Shown: positions 5,454-42,956, numbered from the stretch's first letter. The stretch: 64,000 bases of DNA from Candidatus Hydrogenedentota bacterium (GCA_052033955.1 JBPOJD010000030.1:33679-97678); one strand, 5' to 3'. Notes: a model not told the origin generated them from the letters alone. Numbers and translations are program-made.

Positions 5454-7475
5454 TCAGACCTTCGAGCGGCGTTTGACCGAGGTCGTGGCGACCTCGCGAA
5501 CGCCAGGGACCGCACGCAGCGTGCGCAGCACGTGCTCGGTGCTCTCCTCGTCGGACGATTCAAAGACGAAATCGAAGAAGCCGAGGCCGTTGTCCTCCGG
5601 ATGCAGCGTCGCGCGCAGGATGTCGATGTTCATCGGGCGGATGGCGTTGGTGATGTCGGCGAGCACATTGGGCCGCTGCACGATGTTCACGCGCATCGCG
5701 GTCTCGAAGTGGCCCTCGCCTTCCCACGAGGCCTCCATGATGCGCGCGGGATCACGCTTGGTGTTCAGAAAGCTGCGGCAGTCCACACGGTGAACCGTGA
5801 CGCCCGGATTCTTGGTGACATAGCCCAGGACGGGTTCGCCGGGCATCGGGTTGCAGCATTTGCCGAACTGCATCAGCATGTTCTTGGTGCCCTGAATCCG
5901 GATGAGCTTCTGGCGCGTGGCCTCGTCCACCTGGCGCACGACCCGCCGCGGGGCCGGGGGCGCCGGGGCAGGGCGCGGCTTGTCCGGCAGGGCGTCCATG
6001 GGGGACTCGATCGGTTCGAGTTCGCCCATCTCGCGCAGCCGTTGCCGGATCCGGGTGCGGGCGCGGCCCGTCACGACGATATCGAGCCAGCTCAGGTGCG
6101 GGGTCTGGTTCTTGGAGGTCAGGATCTCGACGACATCGCCGGTCTGCAGGTTGTACTTGAGGTTGACCATGCGCCCGTTGGCGCGCGCGCCGATGCAGCG
6201 GTTGCCGACGTCGGAGTGGATGCTGTAGGCAAAATCCAGCGGCGTGGCGCCCGCGGGAAGCTCCTTGACCTCGCCTTTGGGCGTGAACACATACACCTCG
6301 GACGCCCCGAAGTCCCGCCGCACGTTGTCCATCAGCTCCTCGGGGGCGTGGGCGTCCTCGAGCCACTCGTGCATCTGCTGGAGCCACTGCAACTGGCTGT
6401 CCAGTTTCGTGCTGCGCCGGCCGCGCTCGCCTTCCTTGTATTTCCAGTGCGCGGCGATGCCCACCCGCGCCGTGCGGTCCATTTCCTCGGTGCGGATCTG
6501 CACCTCCAGCGGCAGCCCGTTGTCGCGCATGACGGTCGTGTGAATCGACTGGTACATGTTGGCCTTCGGGATCGCGATGTAGTCCTTGAAGCGGCCCGGC
6601 ACCGGCGGCCAGACGTGGTGGACCACGCCCAGCGCGTTGTAGCATCCCGCCACCGTCTGGGTGATGATGCGCAGGGCGAGGATGTCCATGACCTGATCAA
6701 AGCTCTTTCCCTGTGACTGCATCTTCTGGTAGATGCCGTACAGGTGCTTGGGCCGGCCAAACACGCGCGCATTGACCTCGGCCTCGGCGAGCCGCACCTC
6801 GAGGAACTCGATGGTGTCCTGCAGCAGCTCTTCGCGCTCCTTGCGCTTCATGGCCACCTGGCCCGCCATTTCCTTGTACTCTTTCGGGTACAGGTAGTGA
6901 AAGGCGTGGTCTTCCAGCTCCCATTTCCACTGGGCGATACCGAGGCGGTTGGCGAGCGGCGCGTAGATATCGAGCGTCTCGCGGGAAATGCGCTCCACCT
7001 TGGCCGGCGGGAGATAACTGATCGTGCGCATGTTGTGCAGGCGGTCAGCCAGCTTGATCAGGATGACGCGCACGTCCTTGGCCGTGGCGATCAACATCTT
7101 GCGCATGTTGTAGGCTTGTTTTTCGAGATGGGGCTCGGCGGCGTTCGCGCAGGCCAGCGTGCTGATCTTCGTCACGCCGTCCACCAGCGCCGTGACCTCC
7201 TCGCCGACCTCGGCCACCAGTTGCGCCCGCGTCATCTCGGAATCCTCGAGCACGTCGTGCAAGAGGCCCGCCGCGACGGTCTTGATGTCCACACCGAGTG
7301 AACACAGAATCTTCGCGACCGCCATGCTGTGCGAAATGTAGGGTTCCCCGCTCACGCGGACCTGCCCCGAGTGGGCCTTGTTGGCCACCCGGTAGGCGTG
7401 GCGCACCAAGTCATCGTCCCCGTCCGGGAAGGTTTTTCGCACCTGCTTGAGCAGTTTTGCAAATTCTTTGCGCAT
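5454..7475 (-). CDS. rel: Bifunctional (p)ppGpp synthetase/hydrolase (Rel/SpoT family).
   Basis: The domains are an N-terminal HD hydrolase ('GLLHDVLED'), a RelA_SpoT synthetase domain, and TGS and ACT C-terminal domains. It is 673 aa and lies directly upstream of uvrB on the same strand. Confidence 0.93.
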   Translation of the reverse strand: MRKEFAKLLKQVRKTFPDGDDDLVRHAYRVANKAHSGQVRVSGEPYISHSMAVAKILCSLGVDIKTVAAGLLHDVLEDSEMTRAQLVAEVGEEVTALVDGVTKISTLACANAAEPHLEKQAYNMRKMLIATAKDVRVILIKLADRLHNMRTISYLPPAKVERISRETLDIYAPLANRLGIAQWKWELEDHAFHYLYPKEYKEMAGQVAMKRKEREELLQDTIEFLEVRLAEAEVNARVFGRPKHLYGIYQKMQSQGKSFDQVMDILALRIITQTVAGCYNALGVVHHVWPPVPGRFKDYIAIPKANMYQSIHTTVMRDNGLPLEVQIRTEEMDRTARVGIAAHWKYKEGERGRRSTKLDSQLQWLQQMHEWLEDAHAPEELMDNVRRDFGASEVYVFTPKGEVKELPAGATPLDFAYSIHSDVGNRCIGARANGRMVNLKYNLQTGDVVEILTSKNQTPHLSWLDIVVTGRARTRIRQRLREMGELEPIESPMDALPDKPRPAPAPPAPRRVVRQVDEATRQKLIRIQGTKNMLMQFGKCCNPMPGEPVLGYVTKNPGVTVHRVDCRSFLNTKRDPARIMEASWEGEGHFETAMRVNIVQRPNVLADITNAIRPMNIDILRATLHPEDNGLGFFDFVFESSDEESTEHVLRTLRAVPGVREVATTSVKRRSKV

Positions 7476-7594: not shown

Positions 7595-7623
7595 TTGCCA
7601 AACGGCTCCAAACTTAGTATATT
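7595..7623 (+). promoter_or_regulatory. Sigma70-type promoter TTGCCA-N17-TATATT for the M23 peptidase gene.
   Basis: The hexamers and spacing are read directly from the sequence. The track ORF 'start' TTG at 7595 is the -35 box, and the real ATG is at 7631. Confidence 0.5.
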
Positions 7624-7630
7624 ACTAGTT

Positions 7631-8191
7631 ATGCGGTGCCAAGCGTTTGTTTCGGCTCCCCAACAGACGGATCGGGACGCCTCAGCTCACCGGCCTGTTC
7701 CGTCGGCCGATCGCCGATGCACGCTGGTATTGCTCGTGGCGCTCATTGTTGGTGGTTGCACCACCATCGGGGACAATGGGCGCCACACTTCTTCCAGTCC
7801 CCCGCAGGGATGGCCCTTGCCGCCCGCCTGCCGACAGGTGACCAGCGCATTCGGGCCGCGCGCCGCCGCAACCGGCGGCCCGAGCCGCCTGCACCAGGGC
7901 ATCGACATCGCGGCCCCAAAAGGGACTCCGGTCCACGCCACCGCGCCCGGCCGGGTGGTCTTCGCGGAGTCATGGGGAGCCTACGGCCGCATCGTGGTGC
8001 TGGATCACGGCAACGGCTACGAAACCCGCTACGCCCACCTGCACCGCATCTCGGCCAAGCCGGGCCGCACCGTGCGCCGCGGCGAGGAGCTTGGGAAGGT
8101 CGGCCGCACCGGGAACGCCACCGGCTACCATCTGCACTATGAAGTGCGTCATCAGGGGCAACCGCTCGACCCCGTGCGCTTTCTTGAGTGA
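7631..8191 (+). CDS. M23 family peptidoglycan metalloendopeptidase, lipoprotein.
   Basis: The C-terminal LytM/M23 domain is present ('GIDIAAPKGTPVHA...GYHLHYEV'). The N-terminal signal peptide has a lipobox-like 'IVGGC'. I moved the start to the ATG at 7631. Confidence 0.85.
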   Translation: MRCQAFVSAPQQTDRDASAHRPVPSADRRCTLVLLVALIVGGCTTIGDNGRHTSSSPPQGWPLPPACRQVTSAFGPRAAATGGPSRLHQGIDIAAPKGTPVHATAPGRVVFAESWGAYGRIVVLDHGNGYETRYAHLHRISAKPGRTVRRGEELGKVGRTGNATGYHLHYEVRHQGQPLDPVRFLE

Positions 8192-8277: not shown

Positions 8278-9636
8278 ATGCACATTGACCGTCCATATCG
8301 AGTGTTGATAGCGAGCCCAGACGCGCCGTACGCGCGCGTGCTCGAAAACCACATCCAAATCGATGGGTACGAGACCGAGCGGGTGTCGGACGCGCCCGGG
8401 GTCCTGCGCCTGCTGGGGCGGCGCGCCTACGATGTGATTCTGCTGGACCTGCACCTGACCGAGGACGTGGACGTCCATCTCGTGTCCTATGCGCGGCGCA
8501 AGCTGCCCCAGGCGCAACTCATCCTGCTTTTCGACAGCCATCAGGTGGACCGGGCGATCGAGGGGCTGCGGCAGGGGGCCTACTTCTACCTTCCCAAGAG
8601 CTGCCAGCCGTCAGACGTGGCACTGGTGGTCAACAAGGCGATGCGGACGCTCCAGGCCCAGGCACGGATCAGCCAGTACGAACAGACCCTCTTCGAGGAG
8701 ATGGCCGGGAGCACCCCGGCGATGAAGCGGGTCATCGAGCTGATCACGAAGGTCGCCCCAACCGACAGCACGGTGCTGCTGCTCGGCGAGAGCGGCACCG
8801 GCAAGGAGGTGGTGGCCAACACCCTCCACCGCCTCAGCAACCGGCGCGACCAGCCGTTCATCGCGATCAACTGCGCCGCGCTGCCCGAGCAATTGCTCGA
8901 GAGCGAGATGTTCGGGCACGTCAAGGGGGCCTTTACCGGCGCGGACAGCGACAAGCGGGGTCTGTTCGAGGAAGCCGACGGCGGCACGATCTTCTTGGAC
9001 GAGATCGGAGACATGTCGCCGCTCACCCAGTCCAAGCTGCTCCGGGTGCTCCAGAGCGGCGAAACCCGGCGGGTCGGCTCGAACGCGCCCCAGCGCGTGG
9101 ACGTACGGGTCGTCGCGGCCACCAACGTGGACCTGGTCGAAGCGGTGCAGGCGAAGCGATTCCGTGAGGACCTGTATTTCCGGCTCAACGTCATCCAGAT
9201 CCGCATCCCGCCGCTGCGCGAGCGCATGGACGCCCTCCCGATGCTGGTCAACCACTTTCTCCAGCGCTACAACACCAAATATGGAAAGACGATACGCGGC
9301 GTGGATCCCCACGCCCAGGTTCTGCTCCGCACCTACACCTACCCGGGCAACGTGCGGGAACTGGAGAGCATCATCGCCCACGCGGTCATCATGAACGACG
9401 GCGACGAGATCCGGGCGCAGGACCTGCCCGACCACGTCCGTTTTGGAACTGGGCCGCAGCTTGCGCTGCCGGATTACGCCTCCGAGGCCCTTCCGACGCT
9501 GTCGGAGATGGAGGCCCGGCTCATCCGGACGGCCCTCGAGCGCCTGGACGGCAACCAGACCGAGGCGGCGCGGCAACTGGGCATTTCCCGGTCTACCTTG
9601 TGGCGAAAAATCAAGGAATACGATATAACCCAATAG
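8278..9636 (+). CDS. Sigma54-dependent response regulator (NtrC family): receiver domain, AAA+ sigma54 activator domain and Fis-type HTH.
   Basis: The receiver domain has the Asp in 'ILLDLHL'. The AAA+ domain has the Walker A 'GESGTGKE', the GAFTGA loop ('GAFTGA') and 'ESELFGH'. The C-terminal HTH is 'QTEAARQLGISRSTLWRKIKEY'. Confidence 0.92.
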   Translation: MHIDRPYRVLIASPDAPYARVLENHIQIDGYETERVSDAPGVLRLLGRRAYDVILLDLHLTEDVDVHLVSYARRKLPQAQLILLFDSHQVDRAIEGLRQGAYFYLPKSCQPSDVALVVNKAMRTLQAQARISQYEQTLFEEMAGSTPAMKRVIELITKVAPTDSTVLLLGESGTGKEVVANTLHRLSNRRDQPFIAINCAALPEQLLESEMFGHVKGAFTGADSDKRGLFEEADGGTIFLDEIGDMSPLTQSKLLRVLQSGETRRVGSNAPQRVDVRVVAATNVDLVEAVQAKRFREDLYFRLNVIQIRIPPLRERMDALPMLVNHFLQRYNTKYGKTIRGVDPHAQVLLRTYTYPGNVRELESIIAHAVIMNDGDEIRAQDLPDHVRFGTGPQLALPDYASEALPTLSEMEARLIRTALERLDGNQTEAARQLGISRSTLWRKIKEYDITQ

Positions 9637-9684: not shown

Positions 9685-11037
9685 TTGACGCCGGAAAACC
9701 ACCCGCTCAAAGGCGCGCAGGGAGCGCAGCATATCGGCCACCTCCTGGTGGAGGACGGCCTGATCAGCCAGGACGGGCTCGATCGGGCGCTGGCGGCGCA
9801 GAAGCAGCATCAGGGCAACCTGGTGGACATCCTGATCGCCCAAGGTGCGGTCGATTACCGGACCTTCGCCCAGTTCCTTTCCCGCCAGAAGCGCCAGGCC
9901 AGCATCGAGCTGTCCCGCTACGAACTGCGCCCGGAGGTCATTGCCCTCGTGCCGTCCGCGTTCGCGTTGCAGCACGAAGTCGTGCCGATCGACCGGCTGG
10001 GCAATCTGCTCACCGTCGGCGCCGTCCGCCCGCTGAGTGCCGGCGTCGAGGAGGAGCTGAAGAACCTGACGGACCTGAGCGTCAAGACCCTGTTGTGCGC
10101 GCCGGGCGACGTCCGGAGCGTGATCAAGCGCTACTATGGGGGCGGGGACGCGGTTCCGGCGGCGCGGGCGGACGCCGAGACGGCCGATCTCGAGAGTCCG
10201 CTGCGGTTGGGCGGTGTAGCCCAGTTGCTCCGGCGGCTGGACAGCCTGCCGACCCTGCCCACCACGGTGCAGCGTGTGCGCGAGATGCTTGACGACCCCG
10301 CGGCGGGCGCCGGCGACGTGGCCCGGGTCATCTCGAACGACCCGCCGATCGCCGCCAGACTGCTCAGCGTGGCGAACTCCGCCGCCTACGGCCTGCGCCA
10401 CCACGTCGACACGGTCGGCCTCGCGGTAACCGTGCTGGGACTCAAGGAGACCTACGGACTGGTGCTGTGCACCTCCGTGATTGACCTGCTTCGCGGCAAC
10501 ACGGTCTTCGACTACCGGTCCTTCTGGTTCGAATCGGTGTGTTGCGCCAACATCGCGACCGCCATCGCCCGGCGCTATGCCCGGGAGAAACGGTCCGGGA
10601 TCTTCTCGGCCGGGCTCCTGCACGACATTGGCCGGCTCGCGTTGAGCCAGGTCGCGCCCGAGCACTACGGCCAGATCGACCGTGAACTGCGTGGTCCCCG
10701 GCTCAGGCAGTGCGAGGAGGAGCGGATCGGCATTGCCCACACCGAGGCCGGGTACCAACTGGCCGTCCAGTGGGGCCTGCCGCCCGACATCGCCGAGGCG
10801 ATCCGGTTCCACCACGCCCCCGCGTTCGCCCAGGAGAACCGCGATCTGGTGGCCATGGTGGCGATTGCCGACGCGGTGGCCGTGTCGCAGCGGCCGGGCA
10901 GCGACGACAGACAACCCGATTTCGCGGCCTGCCGGGAGAGTCTGGAGGTGCTGGGCCTGAGCGAGGCAGACGTCATGGAGGTGCTGACGAAGGGCCCGGA
11001 CCACGACGCCGTGGACGTCTTTGTCTCGCCCAATTAG
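9685..11037 (+). CDS. MshEN (GspE/MshE N-terminal, c-di-GMP-binding type) domain fused to an HDOD domain.
   Basis: The N-terminus has two tandem MshEN-like motifs ('IGHLLVEDGLISQDGLDRALAAQ' and 'LVDILIAQGAVDYRTFAQFLSRQ'). The C-terminal ~280 aa match HDOD ('LPTLPTTVQRVREML...', 'GLLHDIGRLAL', 'IAHTEAGYQLAVQWGLP', 'AIRFHH'). Confidence 0.75.
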   Translation: MTPENHPLKGAQGAQHIGHLLVEDGLISQDGLDRALAAQKQHQGNLVDILIAQGAVDYRTFAQFLSRQKRQASIELSRYELRPEVIALVPSAFALQHEVVPIDRLGNLLTVGAVRPLSAGVEEELKNLTDLSVKTLLCAPGDVRSVIKRYYGGGDAVPAARADAETADLESPLRLGGVAQLLRRLDSLPTLPTTVQRVREMLDDPAAGAGDVARVISNDPPIAARLLSVANSAAYGLRHHVDTVGLAVTVLGLKETYGLVLCTSVIDLLRGNTVFDYRSFWFESVCCANIATAIARRYAREKRSGIFSAGLLHDIGRLALSQVAPEHYGQIDRELRGPRLRQCEEERIGIAHTEAGYQLAVQWGLPPDIAEAIRFHHAPAFAQENRDLVAMVAIADAVAVSQRPGSDDRQPDFAACRESLEVLGLSEADVMEVLTKGPDHDAVDVFVSPN

Positions 11038-11079
11038 AGCATGAACCGGGCCAGGCATCGTGTCGCACGGTTTCCGTAC

Positions 11080-11350
11080 GGGCGGGTTTGAAACCCGCCC
11101 CTACAAGACGAGATGCGCAACCCCGTGCCGACGCGTTACAAACCCGCCCCCGCAAAACGAGACGCGTGACCCCGTGCGGACGCGTTACAAACCCGCCCCC
11201 GCAAAACGAGACGCGTGACCCCGTGCCGACGGGCTGCAAACCCGCCCCCGCAAAATGTGACATGCGAACCCTGTAGGGGCGGGTTTCAAACCCGCCCCCG
11301 CGAGGCATAGGAAACCAATCACACATCCGGTTTCAAACCCGCCCCTGCAT
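11080..11350. repeat. Degenerate tandem repeat array of about six copies with a ~49-bp period, flanked by and containing GC-rich palindromes (GGGGCGGGTTT[G/C]AAACCCGCCCC).
   Basis: The core 'AAACCCGCCCC' recurs at 11091, 11140, 11189, 11238, 11288 and 11335. Copies 2 and 3 are nearly identical and the outer copies are diverged. The array lies in the convergent intergenic space between the 9685..11037 (+) gene and the 11369..12049 (-) gene. Confidence 0.8.
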
Positions 11351-11368
11351 CCGGCCTGGCGTGGCCAA

Positions 11369-12013
11369 TCAGGCGGGAGGCACGGCGGTTTCGATGCGGG
11401 TGGGCGACGCCTCGTTCGCGATCTGCTGGAGGTAGCGCAGGCACGCCTCGTCATCCCAACGCGCGCCGCTTTCATAGCGGAAGGCAATCCGGTCATCGGG
11501 CGTGAGGATGAAGGTCGTCGGGGTGCCACGGCCCTTGTACGCCTCGGGACGCGGCCCGGATGCCAGCAAGATGGGTACGGTCAGTCCCTGCTGTTCCACG
11601 ACGGCCCGGATTTCGGTCGTGAACGCCGCCATGTCCTCGTCCTTTTCCTTCTCGGCCACGCACCAGAAGACGACGTCCTCCTCCGCAGCCTTCTCGTAGA
11701 GGTCCTGGATGTGCGGCAGGGTCGCGATGCAGTAGGGACAGTGCGGATGCCAGAAAGTGAGAAAGACCGTCTGTCCCTGAAGCTGCCGCGCGGACACGGG
11801 CTCGCCCGTCTCCAGATCGGTGACGTCCCAGTCGTAGGCGGCGGGCGCATCGGGAAACGCCGGCGCCTTCAGGCGTGCCGCGGCGCGCTTGACAAGAAAC
11901 CGGTAACCGGTGTCCGTGCGGGTCATCCCGACCACCAGCAGCGCCTCCACGAACAGCACCAGCAGCATGCCGGCGACCAGGCCGCAAGCGAAGAGGAGTT
12001 TTGGGCGTTTCAT
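11369..12013 (-). CDS. TlpA/ResA-like membrane-anchored thioredoxin-fold protein with a CPYC active site.
   Basis: The active site reads 'WHPHCPYC', and the N-terminal TM/signal is 'MKRPKLLFACGLVAGMLLVLFV'. The track ORF extends to 12049 with an Arg-rich leader. A start at 12013 is more plausible. Confidence 0.7.
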   Translation of the reverse strand: MKRPKLLFACGLVAGMLLVLFVEALLVVGMTRTDTGYRFLVKRAAARLKAPAFPDAPAAYDWDVTDLETGEPVSARQLQGQTVFLTFWHPHCPYCIATLPHIQDLYEKAAEEDVVFWCVAEKEKDEDMAAFTTEIRAVVEQQGLTVPILLASGPRPEAYKGRGTPTTFILTPDDRIAFRYESGARWDDEACLRYLQQIANEASPTRIETAVPPA

Positions 12014-12089
12014 GGGAACCATTCTACGTCGCGCGCGGCGGCGGCGCAAGAAGCAGGCGCCGCCCCGCCCGCGTCATCCGGGTGCCCCG

Positions 12090-13265
12090 TCAGAACCGCA
12101 ACACCGCCCCGATCCCGTCCGCGCTGCGCGTAAGGTCCTCAGCGGCATCCTCCCGCATCTGCTCGACCATGCCGCCGCTCCGCGCGACCTCCTCGACCAG
12201 CCGCTCGATCAGGTCGTCGACGCCGCGCACCGCGCCCCCGCACTCCGGGCACTGGTCCGGCACGGCGGGTGACAGTCTGCCGCAGTCCGTGCATTCGGCG
12301 CCATTTGCCTCGAAACCCTCGGCGTACACGAGCGACTGGACGCGGTGCCCGGACACGGCCTCCACGGTCGGCGGCAGGCCAATGACCGCGTGATTGCGTT
12401 TGCGGGCCAAGGTGAGAAGCCGCTGCAACAGATCGCGTTCGGTGCTGCGCTCGTAGTCGCGGATGATGGGCCGCGTCGCGTCCAAGAGATCCTTGTCGGC
12501 AGCGGTCACGGCCATGGCAGTCGATCCGATGACGCGGTCGCGCATGCGGTCGCTCAAGAGCCGCTGCAATTCACTGGTGGTCTCGACCGGACCGGCAAGG
12601 ACGATGCGGCTGAACTCCTGACGCCGCCCGAAGTCGTCCATGATCTCCGCCACCCGCTTCAAATGTGAGCGCGCGTGCTCGTCGGCCTTGCGCTGTAACT
12701 GCATCTGGGACCACATCTGGTCCTTGCCCGACGCGTCGAAGCGTTTCACGTCGCCTTCGGCGGCGGTCTCCTCATACTCCTCAATTTCGTCGAACATGAC
12801 TGTGAACAGCCTCGCCTGGGCCCGGTCCGCGAGGATGATCCCGTAGCGCTCATGCTCGTCACGCGCCTCGATCAGGGGGCGCACATGGGGCCGGGCCGCC
12901 CAGCGCGCCGAGGTCTCGAGCGGCAACCGCAGGCTGCCGTGCCACTGGAACCCGTCGGAATGGTTGGCGACATAGAGGAGTGTGCGGCCCACCGGGCTGT
13001 AGCTCTTGACAAACTTCGTGCAGATCTCGGCGTCGCGGGCAAATTCCTTGCGTTCTGCGCCGCTCAGATCCTCCTCGATGCCGCGCAACACGTTGTGCAG
13101 CGCGACCTCAAAGCCCCGGTTCAGATTGGGGGCGTAGCCCTGGTTGACGTTCAGGTAGACCGTCAGTACGTGCGACCCCGCCGGGGCCGCGTAACCGAGC
13201 AGCCGCTTCAACTCGTCATCGGTTATCATGGGCATCTCCTGACATGGCTGTTGGTGTTGCGCCAC
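12090..13265 (-). CDS. eRF1/Pelota (Dom34)-like protein, a bacterial 'baeRF'-type, with an inserted C4 zinc ribbon; it has no GGQ motif.
   Basis: The central and C-terminal domains are collinear with eRF1 domains 2-3. 'IILADRAQARLFTV' matches eRF1 'FIVIDGSGALFGTL', 'RIVLAGPVETTSEL' matches 'GLVLAGSADFKTEL', and the C-terminal 'GIGAVLRF' matches 'GIGGILRY'. The GGQ position reads 'SGKDQ'. The insert is 'CTDCG-x10-CPECGG'. Confidence 0.75.
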   Translation of the reverse strand: MAQHQQPCQEMPMITDDELKRLLGYAAPAGSHVLTVYLNVNQGYAPNLNRGFEVALHNVLRGIEEDLSGAERKEFARDAEICTKFVKSYSPVGRTLLYVANHSDGFQWHGSLRLPLETSARWAARPHVRPLIEARDEHERYGIILADRAQARLFTVMFDEIEEYEETAAEGDVKRFDASGKDQMWSQMQLQRKADEHARSHLKRVAEIMDDFGRRQEFSRIVLAGPVETTSELQRLLSDRMRDRVIGSTAMAVTAADKDLLDATRPIIRDYERSTERDLLQRLLTLARKRNHAVIGLPPTVEAVSGHRVQSLVYAEGFEANGAECTDCGRLSPAVPDQCPECGGAVRGVDDLIERLVEEVARSGGMVEQMREDAAEDLTRSADGIGAVLRF

Positions 13266-13361
13266 GCACCTCTGGACTCGCCATAGATAACAGAAAAGAC
13301 GCCGTGCTCCATTCGCTCCGGCGCGCCATCGCCGGAACGTATAGGTTCTTTACAATGGAAC

Positions 13362-13398
13362 GGGGCCGCCACGGGTCCAATGGTCCCATGGCGGCCCC
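13362..13398 (-). terminator. GC-rich imperfect palindrome downstream of the alpha-mannosidase stop.
   Basis: GGGGCCGCCA...TGGCGGCCCC forms 10-bp arms with an internal loop. It lies just 3' of the GH38 gene stop on the minus strand. Confidence 0.4.
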
Positions 13399-13417
13399 GG
13401 TGTGGCCTGTCAGCCGG

Positions 13418-16213
13418 TTACATGGTCAACTCGACCGTCACGATGGCGCCCTTGGGGGCCGGGATCTCGACTGCCCCGTCCTTCAGCTTCAGGTCGCGGT
13501 CGGGCTCTTCGCTGAGCTTGAGCAGCCGCGCCTGCTTCACCGGGAGCGCCACGCGCAAGGTCGCCTTGGCATCCTTCCCGGTGGGATTGAAGAACCGCAC
13601 GATGACCGCGTCGCGCTCATCGGCCTTCTTCACCGCGCTCAGAACGACGCTGTCGCCGTCGAGACTCAGGAAGCTGTGCTCCGCCGGGAACTGGCCCTCC
13701 TGCCGGCCGAACTGGCAGGCGCGCAGCGGGGTATTGAACGCGAGCGCCGAGGGATAGAGGCCGGCCTTGTCCCACATCTTGGTATGGGGCTGCAACGCAT
13801 AGCGGTACCGGAACGAACGCAGCGACTGCGCGCTTTCGTCGCCGGGATATTCCATCCACAGGCGGTTGTCGCACGGGATCCGCAGCCGGACGCCGCGGAC
13901 CAGACCCATCGCCAGCGTGCCCGTCTCGTCGTGCTCGAGCACTTCGTAATCTTTGGCGGCATCGCTCAGCACCGCGAGCCCGTTCTTGCCGTCGAAGAGG
14001 TCGAACCACAGTTGTGCCGGATGACGCGCCAGCGCGGGACCCCGCAGCTCGGCGTTCCGGCCGGGCGCCACGGGAAATTCCGTCACCGTGAACGCGCCCT
14101 CGGCCCAGGTCTTTTCCGCCTGGAGCCCGGTCGGGAAACACACCTTGAGATAGTGGTCCCGGGCGCGGTTGTCGATTTCGGTCTCGACTTCCAGGTAGGG
14201 CTGGCCCTTGCGGAGCGTGGCGCGCACCTGTACCGGCACCGCAACCGTCGCCTCGCTGCGCCGCTGGGCGGTCCAGTCGTAGGAGGCGGGCAGATGCAGC
14301 GTCTGCCGCACGTCGAAGACCACCGCCAGGGGACCGCTGACCGCGATGGCGACCTGCGCCGGCTGGCCCAGGCTGCGGATCACGGCGTCGTTCGCGGGCG
14401 GGTCGGACATCCACATGTTGCCGGTCTCGCCCTGGTCCAGGAAGTAGTTCAGCGACGGGTAGACGTGGCCCGTGGCCTTGTCGGTCAGGTCAAAGGTGCC
14501 GTCGGCGTTGGCGCGGACCCGTACCAGGTCGTTCTCCGCCTGATTGGGACCGCTCAGCAGGCTGTCGGCCAGGATGCGCGGCGGGTCCCAGTCCTCGTGC
14601 GGGTAAGGATACTCGTTCTTCTGCTCCCATTTGAGCTTGAAGACCTTGTGACCCATCGCCGGGACATTGGCGGCCTCGAAATAGAGGTGCACCTTCGTGC
14701 AGTAGAACGGCATGTTGCGCGAGCGCGGGTGATACACGCCCGCCCGGGTCTGCTGGCGGCCGGCTTCCTGCACGGCGACCGGGTTGCCGTCGAGATCCTC
14801 AATCACGACATGCTTGAGCTGCACGTCGGCGGGCACGTCCACATACGCCTCGACGACCTCGGTCCGGGCAACGGCCGAGGGGTTGTGCACGGCCAGGAAG
14901 TACTCGCAGTCCTCGATGCCGCTCGTGTCGATTTCCTTGGTGATGTTCTCGAGCCCCTTGCGCAGCAGTCCCTTCGAAATGACGTGCGCCTGCTTGAGAC
15001 GTCCGAGTTCGCCTTCCGCCAGCGTGACGGGGCCGAGCCCGTGGAGCGAATCGTGCGCGTGGCTCTGGAAGAGCAGCCGCCAGATCTTTTCCAGGTAGGT
15101 GGCGGGATAGGAACTGATGCCGTGCGCCCAGGCGATCGTCGAGAGGGGTTCGGCCCAGCGCAGCAGCGCGTTCTCGGTGTGGCTGTTCTCGATCAGCATC
15201 TCCGGGTGAACCGACATGACGTCGGTGTGGACCGCGCCCACCGGGCCGTCGCGCATCGCGCCGCGGACGACGTCGAGGTCCTTGCGGCCCTGGAGCTTCT
15301 CGCGCAGTTCGGCCAGGTAATCGCCCAGACGGCTCTGGATGATCTCGTGGTCCGGGAACAGCTTCTGAATCTCGGCGTAGACCTGCGGGCTGAGCGGGTG
15401 CGGCTCGGTGAAGTCGGTGCCGTCGAAGAACAGGACCGACTCCGGCATGGCCGTCGACTGGACGGTCTTCAGCGTGCGCTCCATGCCTTCCTTGATACGG
15501 GTCGGGTGGTAGGCCGTTTCCGGGTCGAGGATTTCGTAGAACCACCCCCGGCCTTCCGGATCCGCCGTGTGGAAGACCTTGCCCAGGTCGCCCCACGTGT
15601 ACCGCCACTCCTTGTGCCACGGGTCGCGGTCGTACATGATCGGAATATGCCCGGCGAAGAAGAAATTCCAGCGGGCCTCGGGTCCCAGGCGCGAGGCCAG
15701 CGCCCGCGTGCCGTCCGGACCCTCCCAGATGAACTCCGGGTATTTCGTCCGGCTCGCGTCCATGTATTTGTAGAAGATGATCGTGTCGATGCCGAACTGG
15801 GCATAGATCTGCGGCAACTGGGCGATCTGGCCAAAACTGAAGACGTTGTAGCCGCAGCGCATCGCGCCGCCGCACTGATCGGCCCGCTTGAGGCCGTAGG
15901 CGAGATTGCGCACCACCGACTCGCCGTTCACCGGCGCGCAATCCGGCAGGGTGAACCACGGGCCGGCCTCGAGGCGGCCTTCCCGCACCAGCCGCTCGAT
16001 CGTGGTGCGCTTCTCGGGCCGGATCTCCAGGTAATCCTCGACAAGCGTGAACTGGCCGTCCAGCATGAAGGATTTGTAGTCCGGGTCCGATTCCATGATG
16101 TCCAGCAGATGATCCAGACAATCGACCAGCCGCATCCGCGTCCGTTCGAACTCCCACCGGAACTCGCGGTCCCAGTGGGTATAGCGCACAATATGTACCC
16201 GGGTCCTAGCCAT
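13418..16213 (-). CDS. Glycoside hydrolase family 38 alpha-mannosidase.
   Basis: The protein has the GH38 N-terminal catalytic domain ('HIVRYTHWDREFRWEFE', 'GPWFTLPDCAPVNGESVVRNLAYG') and the central and C-terminal GH38 domains. I moved the start from the track's 16339 to the ATG at 16213 (MARTRVHIV...). Confidence 0.85.
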   Translation of the reverse strand: MARTRVHIVRYTHWDREFRWEFERTRMRLVDCLDHLLDIMESDPDYKSFMLDGQFTLVEDYLEIRPEKRTTIERLVREGRLEAGPWFTLPDCAPVNGESVVRNLAYGLKRADQCGGAMRCGYNVFSFGQIAQLPQIYAQFGIDTIIFYKYMDASRTKYPEFIWEGPDGTRALASRLGPEARWNFFFAGHIPIMYDRDPWHKEWRYTWGDLGKVFHTADPEGRGWFYEILDPETAYHPTRIKEGMERTLKTVQSTAMPESVLFFDGTDFTEPHPLSPQVYAEIQKLFPDHEIIQSRLGDYLAELREKLQGRKDLDVVRGAMRDGPVGAVHTDVMSVHPEMLIENSHTENALLRWAEPLSTIAWAHGISSYPATYLEKIWRLLFQSHAHDSLHGLGPVTLAEGELGRLKQAHVISKGLLRKGLENITKEIDTSGIEDCEYFLAVHNPSAVARTEVVEAYVDVPADVQLKHVVIEDLDGNPVAVQEAGRQQTRAGVYHPRSRNMPFYCTKVHLYFEAANVPAMGHKVFKLKWEQKNEYPYPHEDWDPPRILADSLLSGPNQAENDLVRVRANADGTFDLTDKATGHVYPSLNYFLDQGETGNMWMSDPPANDAVIRSLGQPAQVAIAVSGPLAVVFDVRQTLHLPASYDWTAQRRSEATVAVPVQVRATLRKGQPYLEVETEIDNRARDHYLKVCFPTGLQAEKTWAEGAFTVTEFPVAPGRNAELRGPALARHPAQLWFDLFDGKNGLAVLSDAAKDYEVLEHDETGTLAMGLVRGVRLRIPCDNRLWMEYPGDESAQSLRSFRYRYALQPHTKMWDKAGLYPSALAFNTPLRACQFGRQEGQFPAEHSFLSLDGDSVVLSAVKKADERDAVIVRFFNPTGKDAKATLRVALPVKQARLLKLSEEPDRDLKLKDGAVEIPAPKGAIVTVELTM

Positions 16214-18778: not shown

Positions 18779-18807
18779 TTGCAGCGCAACAGGGCGGGTG
18801 CTATAAT
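18779..18807 (+). promoter_or_regulatory. Sigma70-type promoter TTGCAG-N17-TATAAT upstream of yebC-ruvCAB.
   Basis: There is a perfect -10 and a good -35 about 50 bp upstream of the yebC ATG. Confidence 0.5.
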
Positions 18808-18855: not shown

Positions 18856-19608
18856 ATGTCGGGTCATTCCAAGTGGAGTACCATCAAACGGAAGAAGGGC
18901 GCTGCGGACGCCAAGCGCGGGAAGATCTTCTCGCGGTTGGCGAAGGAAATCGCCATGGCGGCGAAGGCGGGCGGCGGCGATCCGGAGATGAACCCGAAGC
19001 TGCGCACGGTGCTGCTTGCCGCCAAGGGCCAGAACATGCCGAAGGAGAACGTCGATCGCGCGATCAAGCGCGGTACGGGCGAGCTTCCGGGGGTCAGTTA
19101 CGAGGAGAACCGGTATGAGGGCTACGGATCCGCCGGGGTGGCGCTGATCATCGACGTCCTCACCGACAATAAGAACCGCACGGTGGCGGAGATTCGCCAC
19201 CTTCTGGGCAAGCACAACGGCAGCCTGGCCGAGTCGGGCGCGGTGACGTGGAACTTCGAGCCCCGCGGCCGCATCGTCATCGACAAGGGCGTTGCGGGCG
19301 AGGAGGCGATGTTCGAGAAGGCCATCGAGGCGGGCGCGGAAGACGTGGACGCCGAGGGCGACGTGTATGTGGTCTATACGGCCCCGCAGGATGTGCATGC
19401 CGTGGCGGAGGCGTTTGCGGGCATGGGCATCGAGGCCCAGGAAATCGAGCTGATCATGCATCCGAAGACGACCATCAAGGTCGAGGGCAAGGAGGCGATC
19501 TCGCTGCTCAAGCTGATGGACGCGCTCGAGGAACACGACGACGTGCAGAACGTCTTCGCCAATTTCGACATCTCGGAAGAGGACATGGCGGCATTCGCGG
19601 CGGAGTAA
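18856..19608 (+). CDS. yebC: YebC/PmpR family DNA-binding transcriptional regulator.
   Basis: The N-terminus reads 'MSGHSKWSTIKRKKGAADAKRGKIFSRL'. The protein is 250 aa and sits in the conserved position upstream of ruvC. Confidence 0.92.
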   Translation: MSGHSKWSTIKRKKGAADAKRGKIFSRLAKEIAMAAKAGGGDPEMNPKLRTVLLAAKGQNMPKENVDRAIKRGTGELPGVSYEENRYEGYGSAGVALIIDVLTDNKNRTVAEIRHLLGKHNGSLAESGAVTWNFEPRGRIVIDKGVAGEEAMFEKAIEAGAEDVDAEGDVYVVYTAPQDVHAVAEAFAGMGIEAQEIELIMHPKTTIKVEGKEAISLLKLMDALEEHDDVQNVFANFDISEEDMAAFAAE

Positions 19609-41767: not shown

Positions 41768-42379
41768 CTATCCCTTTCCTAGCGTGGAGACAACGAGACT
41801 GTTGAACACTTCGACCTCGGCCGTATCCAGAGAACGGAGGAGGTCCGCCGATTCCGCGGTGGCGTAGACCTCTTCCACGAGCTCGTCAAACCAATCCTCC
41901 TCCGCCAGCATGGCGAGGAGGTCATCCCCGGAGAGCGCGCCGTCAGCGTCGTACGCCGCGAGCGCGGTCTCGATGTCGCCGGTCTCGGCCCGGCTCGCCA
42001 GCTCATTCCAGAGCCGCTCTTCGATTTCCGCCAGCGACACGGCGGGTGGCGCCGTCGTTGCGGGAGGACGCAGGGTGTTGGTGACAACGGCCGCGACAAT
42101 CAGTGCCGCGACCGCCGCGCCGCTCCAGGCTATCGCAACCGGCGCATGCCAGCCGCGCGGCGGCGCTGCTTCCCGGACGTTGGCCATGATGCGTGTCGTG
42201 AACGCGGGCGCCACGTCGGGCGCGGGCAGCTTGTGCAGCGTGAGCGCCATCGCGCGCAGTTCGAGATAGTGCCGCTGGCAGACGGCGCAGCGCCGCAGAT
42301 GCGCGGCGACCGCCTCCGGGTCCTCGGCCTCGCCATCGAGAAAGGCCGAGAGCTGATCGATAACGTGTTCAGTGCTCAT
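41768..42379 (-). CDS. Anti-sigma factor with an N-terminal zf-HC2 motif and a single TM segment.
   Basis: The zinc motif is 'HLRRCAVCQRHY', and the TM segment is 'VAIAWSGAAVAALIVAAVV'. It overlaps the ECF sigma gene by 11 bp. Confidence 0.75.
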   Translation of the reverse strand: MSTEHVIDQLSAFLDGEAEDPEAVAAHLRRCAVCQRHYLELRAMALTLHKLPAPDVAPAFTTRIMANVREAAPPRGWHAPVAIAWSGAAVAALIVAAVVTNTLRPPATTAPPAVSLAEIEERLWNELASRAETGDIETALAAYDADGALSGDDLLAMLAEEDWFDELVEEVYATAESADLLRSLDTAEVEVFNSLVVSTLGKG

Positions 42380-42956
42380 GGAGCAGTTCTCCCAGATGCG
42401 GCGCCAGTTCCGCGCGCAACTGTTCGCGGGCGCGGGACAACCGGCTCTTCACCGTTCCCCGGCGGCACCCAAGCACCGCCGCGATCGCGTCGTAGTCCAG
42501 ACCCTGAATGTCCCGGAGCACCACAATCTCGCGGTATTCGGGGCGTAGCCGTTGCAGCGCCTGCTGCACCAGTTCGTCGGCCTCGCGAAGCTGCGCCACC
42601 TGGTCGGGCTGCGGGTGACGATCCGCCACGGACCGCCCCGCGCCCTCCTCCTCGACGAGGGGCTGTTGCGTGTCGCGTCCCCGCCGGCCGCTGTCGCGCA
42701 GATGGTTCAGCGTCAGGTTCCGGGCGGTGGCGAACAGATAGGTGGAAAACAGCGCCTTGGGCCGGAGCCGGCCGAGTTGACCGTAAACGCGGATGAAACT
42801 TTCCTGGGCGAGATCCTCGGCGTCCTGGCGGGACCCGGCCATGCGCCAGCAAAAATGCACCACATGCTGTTGATGACGGCGGACCAATTCCGCGAAGGCC
42901 TCGGTGTGGCCCTTTCGCGCCTCGTCCACCAACTCCCAGTCTGTGCGTGCCTGCAT
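42369..42956 (-). CDS. ECF (sigma-70 family group IV) sigma factor.
   Basis: Region 2 reads 'DAEDLAQESFIRVY', and region 4 is 'YREIVVLRDIQGLDYDAIAAVLGCRRGTVKSRLSRAREQL'. Confidence 0.9.
   Translation of the reverse strand: MQARTDWELVDEARKGHTEAFAELVRRHQQHVVHFCWRMAGSRQDAEDLAQESFIRVYGQLGRLRPKALFSTYLFATARNLTLNHLRDSGRRGRDTQQPLVEEEGAGRSVADRHPQPDQVAQLREADELVQQALQRLRPEYREIVVLRDIQGLDYDAIAAVLGCRRGTVKSRLSRAREQLRAELAPHLGELLHEH

Follow-up and report, generated by a model that had tools for sequence, protein, structure and literature searches.

Identification of the two genes

We analyzed a 64-kb stretch of DNA from a Candidatus Hydrogenedentota bacterium (the window), in which two neighboring genes on the minus strand encode a bacterial protein related to archaeal and eukaryotic release factors (the baeRF protein) and a thioredoxin-fold protein with a CPYC site. 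Both genes had been proposed in an earlier interpretation made without database searches (the sequence-only reading), and both open reading frames (ORFs) proved to be real, with corrected starts. The baeRF ORF is open over 12090..13265 and would encode 391 aa if begun at GTG 13265, and the thioredoxin-fold ORF spans 11369..12049, with 226 aa from a TTG codon. Since ~150 baeRF homologs are 378–380 aa long and begin with MI(T/S), and since an AGGAG sequence precedes ATG 13229, we place the start of the baeRF gene at this ATG and number its residues in the resulting 379-aa protein. Similarly, all three orthologs of the thioredoxin-fold protein are 214 aa long, which sets its start at ATG 12013. 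The gene for a TlpA/ResA-like CPYC protein thus lies next downstream on the same strand, as had been read, across a gap of 76 nt. The GC content around both genes is ~66%, and plus-strand ORFs that run over them (e.g., 12852..13286 and 11711..12133) were taken as antisense ORFs because of this composition and because the genes that they overlap have homologs.

Family and fold of the baeRF protein

The baeRF protein matched the Pfam model PF18854 (baeRF_family10) with 115.4 bits (gathering cut-off 27.1, E 3.3e-33), from profile position 1 to 140 of 143 and over aa 114–254, and its relatives score 130–140 bits against the same model. Weaker Pfam matches were obtained with other baeRF families and with eRF1 domains 2 and 3, of which eRF1_2 is weak and eRF1_3 covers aa 276–391 of the 391-aa ORF. 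The best NCBIfam matches, both of the protein and of its relatives, are three families of ribosome hibernation factors, NF052288 (MSMEG_1130; 97.4 bits, cut-off 480), NF052289 (Rv2629; 69.4 bits, cut-off 320), and NF052287 (AOC03_06830, Balon; 42.9 bits, cut-off 330), each below its equivalog cut-off. The model of canonical class-1 release factors, TIGR03676 (aRF1/eRF1), was not reached either, with 60 bits against a cut-off of 234.7.

A single-sequence search of Protein Data Bank (PDB) sequences retrieved Msmeg1130 (Balon) at E 1.2e-7. A profile built from 47 family members matched the same protein at E 2.7e-29 over residues 8–377, followed by Schizosaccharomyces pombe eRF1 (4.6e-13), archaeal aRF1 (4AF1; 5.6e-10), and then mammalian eRF1, Pelota, and Rv2629; the chain of Balon from Psychrobacter urativorans (8RD8) was not among the profile matches at E ≤ 0.01. 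Residues 10–374 of Msmeg1130, rebuilt from the profile alignment, scored as a member of baeRF_family10 (125 bits, E 4.6e-36). The window protein therefore shares a curated Pfam family with a protein that binds the A site of the 70S ribosome.

An AlphaFold2 model based on the family alignment reached a predicted local distance difference test (pLDDT) score of 88.5 and a predicted template modeling (TM) score of 0.78, with a single disordered segment, aa 158–171, in which pLDDT falls below 50. When the model was compared with the PDB by Foldseek, the top match was ribosome-bound Msmeg1130, over the full length (387 columns, TM 0.81/0.82, E 4e-25), and Balon from P. urativorans and Rv2629 came next (TM 0.67–0.71, E ~1e-19). 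Full-length matches to aRF1, eRF1, and Pelota ranged from E 1e-21 to 1e-8, with TM ~0.55 for aRF1 (E 1.6e-21) and eRF1 and a lower score for Pelota. The predicted structure has the three-domain architecture of the aeRF1 superfamily, consisting of an N domain, an RNase-H-like middle domain, and a Pelota-like C domain. Thus, the eRF1/Pelota-type fold that had been recognized by eye is borne out far beyond chance, both by searches with hidden Markov models (HMMs) and by the AlphaFold2/Foldseek comparison, and the short eRF1 matches that had suggested it were recovered when redone by HMMER against S. pombe and mammalian eRF1 (IILADRAQARLFTV/FIVIDGSGALFGTL, RIVLAGPVETTSEL/GLVLAGSADFKTEL, and GIGAVLRF/GIGGILRY).

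We conclude that the protein belongs to a zinc-ribbon-retaining branch of baeRF family 10, which is sister to Msmeg1130. The branch comprises ~150 or more cluster representatives from Acidobacteriota, Nitrospirota, Chloroflexota, Desulfobacterota, and other phyla, and the locus adds one member and one phylum to a known family. Outside its own clade, the nearest relatives share 50% identity with the window protein and come from Nitrospiraceae and Acidobacteriota (GTDB species representatives), and none of the best 80 family-10 loci from GTDB lies in a Hydrogenedentota genome. This distribution is consistent with lateral acquisition, as has been proposed for baeRF genes generally (Burroughs & Aravind, 2019; PMC6514570). 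Two metagenome-assembled genomes (MAGs), Blastocatellia bin 121 (L012/L045) and Acidobacteria J050 (L014/L044), each carry two zinc-ribbon family-10 paralogs, which are 49% and 37% identical to that of the window and lie in HPF/Usp versus AMMECR1/HtrA contexts; these pairs echo the multi-copy Balon genomes reported in 2024 (PMC10901736).

Conserved motifs in the three domains

Residue conservation was counted over 184 non-redundant relatives. In the N-terminal domain, an N-x-x-R-G-F-E loop is widely kept (N35 in 162, R38 in 164, and F40 in 147 of the 184), and the protein sequence contains no NIKS motif. Profile alignment to eRF1/aRF1 begins only at about residue 111, whereas alignment to Msmeg1130 is possible from residue 8.

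The middle domain contains the loop that corresponds to the GGQ loop of eRF1, but neither the HMMER register nor the column counts revealed a GGQ in it. HMMER aligned eRF1 ...HGRGG-----QS... with ...FDAS GKDQM WS..., which makes the loop 5 residues longer than that of eRF1; the eRF1 GGQ falls on A166, S167, and W173, with the extension in between and W173 at the position of the glutamine. The sequence-only reading had instead assigned the GGQ position to SGKDQ (aa 167–171). This register was off, as the segment lies within the 5-residue extension and Q171 is kept in only 44 of the 184 relatives. Loop length is identical in 167 relatives, and several residues in and after the loop are conserved, namely G168 (149/184), D170 (162/184), S174 (174/184), Q175 (152/184), Q179 (156/184), and R180 (168/184). 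The most distant members, from Chloroflexota, read GGWSQ, and GGxSQ is the motif of the archaeal and actinobacterial/chloroflexi VLRF1 families (aVLRF1/acVLRF1; PMC6514570). Msmeg1130 reads AGQM at the site of S174-Q175, so that a glutamine in this place does not conflict with a hibernation factor that lacks hydrolytic activity. The earlier observation that GGQ is absent stands, but not the conclusion drawn from it that the protein probably cannot hydrolyze peptidyl-tRNA: it came from the misregistered alignment, and S174 and Q175 are conserved (95% and 83%) just downstream. Judged from the sequence, the absence of GGQ does not prove catalytic inactivity.

The C-terminal domain carries a zinc ribbon of four cysteines, each of which is present in 180–181 of the 184 relatives (~98%). 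The region is modeled with pLDDT 91–94 and gave weak matches to rubrerythrin-like and DUF7129 zinc-ribbon models, and its second knuckle (CPECG) aligns to CSDCG of archaeal aRF1 (4AF1). A zinc ribbon in the Pelota domain is an ancestral feature of aeRF1, and many baeRF families have a degenerate two-strand insert at this site (PMC6514570). Because the ribbon is so widely kept, aligns to the aRF1 knuckle, and is ancestral in the superfamily, we interpret it as a retained aRF1 element and as a defining trait of the subfamily. The C4 zinc ribbon described before is therefore present in the C-terminal domain, but it is not a peculiar insertion of this protein, since it occupies an ancestral aeRF1 site and is shared by the whole subfamily.

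Comparison with known hibernation and release factors

Balon is a distant aeRF1 homolog that is found in ~20% of representative bacteria (Helena-Bueno et al, Nature 2024; PMC10901736), and Balon-type factors were recognized in that year as constituting a third class of ribosome hibernation factors in bacteria. Balon fills the A site, whether the ribosome is vacant or translating, together with EF-Tu(GDP) and independently of mRNA; it lacks NIKS and GGQ, and a beta-loop insertion in its C domain forms the contact with EF-Tu. Its genes typically belong to stress operons that also encode RaiA/HPF, Hsp20, OsmC, and similar proteins. Msmeg1130 and Rv2629 share Balon's mode of ribosome binding, and structures of all three homologs on ribosomes have been solved (PMC10901736). 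The previous description of baeRF proteins as rare in bacteria, with a function proposed but not shown, is outdated by these data, given that Msmeg1130 belongs to the same Pfam family as the window protein.

Msmeg1130 (MSMEG_1130 of Mycobacterium smegmatis; PDB 8V9J and 8V9L) resembles the window protein in its family, in its fold over the full length, and in having neither GGQ nor NIKS. Both proteins have a glutamine at the S174-Q175 site (GQM versus SQM), a loop that is followed by a basic helix, and a C-terminus of the form GxxAxLR. Msmeg1130 differs in a middle-domain loop that is 7 aa shorter and in the stretch aligned to the zinc ribbon, TVGADGSLYADGEIAPHSHAA, which is free of cysteines, whereas the window protein keeps all four. 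Balon from P. urativorans (8RD8, 8RDV, and 8RDW; NF052287) and Rv2629 from M. tuberculosis (8V9K) share the aeRF1-like fold but are much more distant in sequence than Msmeg1130; the stress-operon setting of Balon (Hsp20, RaiA/HPF) resembles the neighborhoods of the window protein's family. From the two published studies combined (PMC6514570; PMC10901736), the zinc ribbon would lie at the site of Balon's EF-Tu-contacting beta-loop, so that, if the positions are equivalent, the C-domain insert is a Cys4 zinc ribbon in this branch instead of a cysteine-free two-strand loop.

Compared with aRF1/eRF1 (4AF1, 1DT9, and 3E20), the window protein has homologous M and C domains (E 4.6e-13 to 5.6e-10), a zinc ribbon at the insertion point of archaeal aRF1, and the GIGxxLRY/F C-terminus. 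It differs from them in the absence of GGQ and NIKS, in an N domain that cannot be aligned by sequence, and in a TM score of only ~0.55. The window protein thus has neither NIKS nor GGQ, as in the definition of Balon-type factors (PMC10901736). It also lacks the hallmark of Vms1/VLRF1 proteins, a GxxQ or GGxSQ catalytic loop, as it reads WSQ without a preceding GG, and it scores 18.4 bits with the Pfam model acVLRF1 (cut-off 27.1). The NCBIfam model acVLRF1 gave no match to it, and no Vms1 structure was found among the 46 Foldseek matches with E ≤ 1e-3.

Gene neighborhoods of family 10

The genomic context of the family was analyzed in 84 non-redundant loci, obtained from GTDB species representatives (146 relatives, of which 80 loci were kept) and other look-ups; the flanking ORFs of all loci were clustered and searched with HMMs. 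Usp genes are neighbors in 15 of the 84 loci, all on the same strand, and Hsp20 genes in 11, of which 10 are on the same strand. Fusions of HPF (S30AE) with sigma-70, HtrA-like proteases, and AMMECR1–LigB fusions each occur in 8 loci, and a divergent class-V aminotransferase gene in 12. At least one of Usp, Hsp20, or the HPF chimera lies within 3 kb of the baeRF gene in 29 of the 84 loci, nearly always on the same strand. These neighbors match the operon picture described for Balon (PMC10901736), as well as a 2025 preprint according to which chimeric HPF genes are often next to Balon genes.

Some of these arrangements are specific to parts of the family. The HPF/S30AE–sigma-70 fusions are ~340 aa long, contain sigma-70 regions 2 and 4, and are encoded on the same strand (L012, L014, L027, L031, L032, L046, L059, and L066). 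In L038–L045, which are eight loci from Acidobacteriota and other MAGs, a 480-aa fusion of LigB (a MEMO1-like dioxygenase) and AMMECR1 is encoded directly upstream of a distinct family-10 paralog on the same strand, with ORF calls that overlap or are a few nt apart. The 12 loci with the class-V aminotransferase or cysteine-desulfurase-like gene (a putative Pfam assignment) lie within L063–L085, from Thermoanaerobaculia, Sulfomarinibacteraceae, and related groups, and have this gene divergent upstream.

In the window itself, a block of four genes adjoins the thioredoxin-fold gene and is syntenic in the related locus L002: RelA/SpoT (5454–7475, minus strand), an M23 peptidase (7595–8191, plus), a sigma-54 response-regulator activator (8278–9636, plus), and an MshEN–HDOD–HD protein (9685–11037, plus). 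A (p)ppGpp synthetase is thereby encoded ~4.6 kb from a putative hibernation factor, which may be coincidence. The named homologs of this RelA/SpoT, with 64–66% identity, come from Candidatus Hydrogenedentota MAGs.

The thioredoxin-fold neighbor

The downstream gene encodes a thioredoxin-fold protein, as indicated by Pfam matches to AhpC-TSA (46.4 bits, cut-off 26) and Redoxin (44.5 bits, cut-off 26.6). All NCBIfam equivalogs remained under their cut-offs, with ResA scoring best (48.8/170), followed by StoA (31.9/210), TlpA (15.8/230), and DsbE (12.7/123), and among solved structures, ResA (4NMU, E 2.5e-10) comes closest. The protein shares the thioredoxin fold, the W-x-x-x-C-x-x-C motif, and an N-terminal membrane anchor with ResA, TlpA, and DsbE, and differs from them in its sub-threshold equivalog scores and in CPYC, a minority variant of CxxC. 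By the positive-inside rule, its thioredoxin domain is predicted to face the periplasm, and its sequence points to a membrane-anchored, probably extracytoplasmic thiol-disulfide oxidoreductase of ResA/TlpA-like type. When 1.84 billion cluster representatives were searched exhaustively, 8,429 relatives were found at E ≤ 1e-3, the nearest of which outside its own clade has 43% identity. Among the best 152 of these, the CxxC site reads CPPC in 32, CGPC in 21, CLPC in 7, and CPYC and CVPC in 5 each, with dozens of singletons, and no glutaredoxin family appeared among the Pfam and NCBIfam matches at E ≤ 1. Hence, CPYC was correctly read, but at a hypervariable site where 5 of 152 relatives share it, it is not the striking glutaredoxin-like feature that had been suggested.

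In the three orthologous loci L001, L002, and L089, whose baeRF proteins are 97%, 73%, and 62% identical to that of the window, a thioredoxin-fold gene also follows immediately downstream, and its products are 100%, 69%, and 58% identical. Among the 84 loci, only the window, L001, and L002 show this arrangement; L089 brings the count to 4 of 85. The pairing therefore appears limited to one narrow clade, probably Hydrogenedentota. The order is GH38, baeRF, and thioredoxin-fold gene in the window and L001, followed by a convergent HDOD gene in the window (L001 ends earlier); GH38, GAPDH, DUF2007, baeRF, thioredoxin-fold, and convergent HDOD gene in L002; and DUF2007, baeRF, thioredoxin-fold, and convergent URO-D gene in L089. 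The DUF2007 gene (86–88 aa; L002 4682–4942 and L089 902–1168) lies 35–58 nt upstream of the baeRF gene. Neither this gene nor a remnant of it was found upstream in the window, and the other 84 loci lack it too; it may have been the first gene of an ancestral unit in the clade.

Transcription signals

A scan for consensus promoters and terminators over 11000–13600 did not detect a sigma-70 site, nor a canonical terminator in the gap between the two genes. A GC-rich hairpin in the 76-nt gap (Table 1) folds with −50.3 kcal/mol (z −2.3); it has no U tract, overlaps a −35-like element, and is not retained in L001. An alignment of the intergenic region from the four loci contains just one conserved block, TTGC(G/A)C-N17-TA(G/A)AAT-GG. 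In three loci, 6–7 nt separate the end of this promoter-like block from the ATG; in L089, the distance is 27 nt and includes a GGGGAG Shine–Dalgarno-like sequence. In the 64-kb window, TTGC-N18-20-TANAAT occurs twice versus 0.12 times expected, and none of 100 shuffles reached two or more. The second copy (TTGCAG...TATAAT, 18779–18807, plus strand) is in sense orientation 49 nt upstream of a yebC/TACO1-family gene (18856–19608), which suggests that the pattern approximates the housekeeping promoter of the organism. In the gap between the two genes, L002 has a 15-bp stem and, after it, a U tract (CUUUUAUU).

The conserved block at the start of the thioredoxin-fold gene and the terminator-like hairpin of L002 together make co-transcription with the baeRF gene, which the sequence-only reading had suggested, doubtful. 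Most likely, the thioredoxin-fold gene has its own promoter; some read-through from upstream may occur as well. Its mRNA is probably leaderless or near-leaderless in the window, which would explain the missing Shine–Dalgarno sequence.

Upstream of the baeRF gene, ~20 nt past the stop codon of the GH38 alpha-mannosidase gene (13418), a 15-bp hairpin at 13361–13399 (minus strand; CGGGGCCGCCATGGG ... CCCGTGGCGGCCCCG, then TTCCATTGT) is probably the GH38 terminator. In that case, a separate promoter for the baeRF gene would be expected within 13241–13360. Over the region upstream of the baeRF gene, the window and L001 share 99% identity, and a by-eye search for a sigma-54 promoter there gave nothing convincing. 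At the other end of the locus, six GC-rich palindromic units, GGGCGGGTTTGAAACCCGCCCC, with a period of ~49 bp (11070–11350) fill the convergent gap between the end of the HDOD gene (11037, plus strand) and that of the thioredoxin-fold gene (11369, minus strand). This array resembles the repetitive extragenic palindrome/bacterial interspersed mosaic element (REP/BIME) type and could serve as a bidirectional terminator. An Rfam search of the whole window at gathering thresholds gave no matches.

Table 1. Positions of the two genes, their protein domains and motifs, and putative signals in the window.
Feature	Position	Strand	Basis
baeRF family-10 (Balon-type) gene, 379 aa	12090..13229	−	ORF, homolog starts, Pfam PF18854, AlphaFold2, Foldseek
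AGGAG Shine–Dalgarno sequence	13236..13240	−	6 nt 5' of ATG 13229; read from sequence
N-terminal domain, aa 1–112, with N35-x-x-R38-G-F40-E41 loop	12894..13229	−	AlphaFold2 secondary structure, column counts
Middle RNase-H-like domain, aa ~125–270, equivalent to eRF1 domain 2	12420..12857	−	Pfam baeRF_family10, weak eRF1_2, eRF1/aRF1 alignments
GGQ-equivalent loop and start of next helix, aa 158–181, EGDVKRFDASGKDQMWSQMQLQRK	12687..12758	−	pLDDT, HMMER register, column counts
C-terminal Pelota/eRF1-domain-3-like domain, aa 271–379, ending in GIGAVLRF	12093..12419	−	Pfam eRF1_3 match, alignments
Cys4 zinc ribbon, C313-x2-C316-x10-C327-x2-C330	12240..12293	−	column counts, aRF1 alignment, AlphaFold2
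GC-rich hairpin, core GGCGGCGC-9 nt-GCGCCGCC at 12040..12064	12027..12077	−	in 76-nt gap; RNA fold
Promoter-like TTGCGC-N17-TAGAAT	12021..12049	−	ends 7 nt before thioredoxin-fold ATG; four-locus alignment
ResA/TlpA-type thiol-disulfide oxidoreductase gene, 214 aa	11369..12013	−	Pfam, ResA 4NMU match, ortholog lengths
Predicted transmembrane anchor, aa 6–30	11924..11998	−	hydrophobic stretch of ~25 residues after MKRPK; architecture common to relatives
CPYC, aa 92–95, within FWHPHCPYC	11729..11740	−	read from sequence

Proposed function and alternatives

We consider it likely that the baeRF protein is a stress-induced, Balon-type hibernation factor of the ribosomal A site. This reading is supported by the protein's family and fold, by its conserved motifs, and by the stress genes found near members of the family; from the homology, we infer that it binds the ribosome, contacts EF-Tu, and does not hydrolyze peptidyl-tRNA. 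By analogy with Msmeg1130, Rv2629, and Balon, the protein would enter the A site under stress or starvation as a mimic of tRNA or release factor, independently of mRNA. Its N domain would touch the decoding center through the conserved N-x-x-R-G-F-E loop, and the middle-domain loop and the basic helix (S174-Q175...Q179-R180-K181) would dock beside the peptidyl-transferase center without releasing the peptide. The C domain may contact EF-Tu in its GDP form via the zinc ribbon, in place of Balon's beta-loop. As a result, ribosomes would be parked and protected.

Several observations weigh against a Balon-type role. The NCBIfam scores are well under the equivalog cut-offs, which by sequence makes the protein part of a sister subfamily and not an ortholog of any characterized factor, and its identity to Msmeg1130 is ~20%. 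The HP motif, lasso loop, and bL27 trap of Balon, whose residues are not numbered in PMC10901736, were not located in the window protein, with the P. urativorans sequence being too distant for the profile; an H-P in Msmeg1130 (FIHPLVE), which may be the HP motif, aligns to R117-P118, of which P118 is invariant. All three homologs solved on ribosomes are devoid of the zinc ribbon, and the role would be extended by analogy to any member that has it. Furthermore, Usp, Hsp20, and HPF genes are absent at the window locus, where the neighbors are GH38 and the thioredoxin-fold gene, and none was found in the entire 64-kb window; the lone match, at 42369–42956, probably reflects the sigma-factor portion of the HPF–sigma model. 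Finally, S174-Q175 is strongly conserved, and family 10 has been singled out for a well-conserved glutamine and is thus possibly catalytic (PMC6514570).

The last point leads to the main alternative, an active release factor or peptidyl-tRNA hydrolase that acts in rescue like Vms1/VLRF1, with Q175 as a shifted GGQ glutamine. The conserved S174 and Q175 and the constrained loop length would fit such an enzyme, as would the GGWSQ of distant Chloroflexota members with its likeness to the VLRF1 motif; family 10 was named as the likeliest active hydrolase among the baeRF families (PMC6514570), and one member bears the NCBI name Vms1/Ankzf1 family peptidyl-tRNA hydrolase. However, Msmeg1130 has GQ at the same site and its structures are described as those of a hibernation factor, the window protein has no GG, the acVLRF1 models and the Foldseek comparison did not link it to VLRF1 or Vms1, and the genes next to family members serve dormancy and stress rather than RNA repair or rescue. 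On balance, hydrolysis is unlikely. We regard as slightly more doubtful the broader proposal that the zinc-ribbon branch works unlike the characterized Balons, either as a zinc- or redox-gated hibernation switch or as a Ser-Gln peptidyl-tRNA hydrolase. As a switch, oxidation of the Cys4 site or loss of zinc could alter the surface that holds EF-Tu(GDP) in Balon. Under the same doubtful proposal, the baeRF gene of the Hydrogenedentota-like clade might also share its regulation with an envelope thiol-oxidoreductase in a response to oxidative or thiol stress.

A functional two-gene module of the baeRF and CPYC genes, in which, for example, a redox-responsive unit would couple oxidative or thiol stress to translation shutdown by shared regulation or via the Cys4 zinc ribbon, would explain why gene order and strand are kept in four contigs although the proteins have diverged to 62% and 58% identity and the genes farther out are not the same (GH38 or DUF2007 on the upstream side, HDOD or URO-D on the downstream side). 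In the window, the gap between the two genes lacks a canonical terminator, and a Cys4 site is in principle redox-sensitive. Yet none of the remaining 81 family loci has the pairing, the predicted periplasm-facing active site cannot reach a cytoplasmic ribosome factor, and the promoter-like motif at the thioredoxin-fold start codon and the stem with U tract in L002 speak for separate transcription. We therefore hold such a module to be improbable: the neighborhood profile, with four contigs of one clade, does not sustain the unusual functional pairing that had been put forward, and the thioredoxin-fold gene is most likely a clade-specific neighbor rather than a partner, in a transcription unit of its own. 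A component of a conflict system that targets ribosomes or tRNA (defense or toxin), also raised by the sequence-only reading, would be in line with the conflict-driven origins proposed for baeRF-1 rescue pathways (PMC6514570) and with the patchy spread over phyla, which is consistent with lateral transfer. PADLOC gave no matches for either protein or for their neighbors, adjacent genes for nucleases, toxins, or mobile elements are lacking, and the neighbors are housekeeping or stress genes, all of which renders this explanation very improbable.

Significance for the family

The protein represents a large sister branch of the known Balon-type factors, in which an ancestral zinc ribbon lies at the presumed EF-Tu-contact site and a conserved glutamine would lie near the peptidyl-transferase center.

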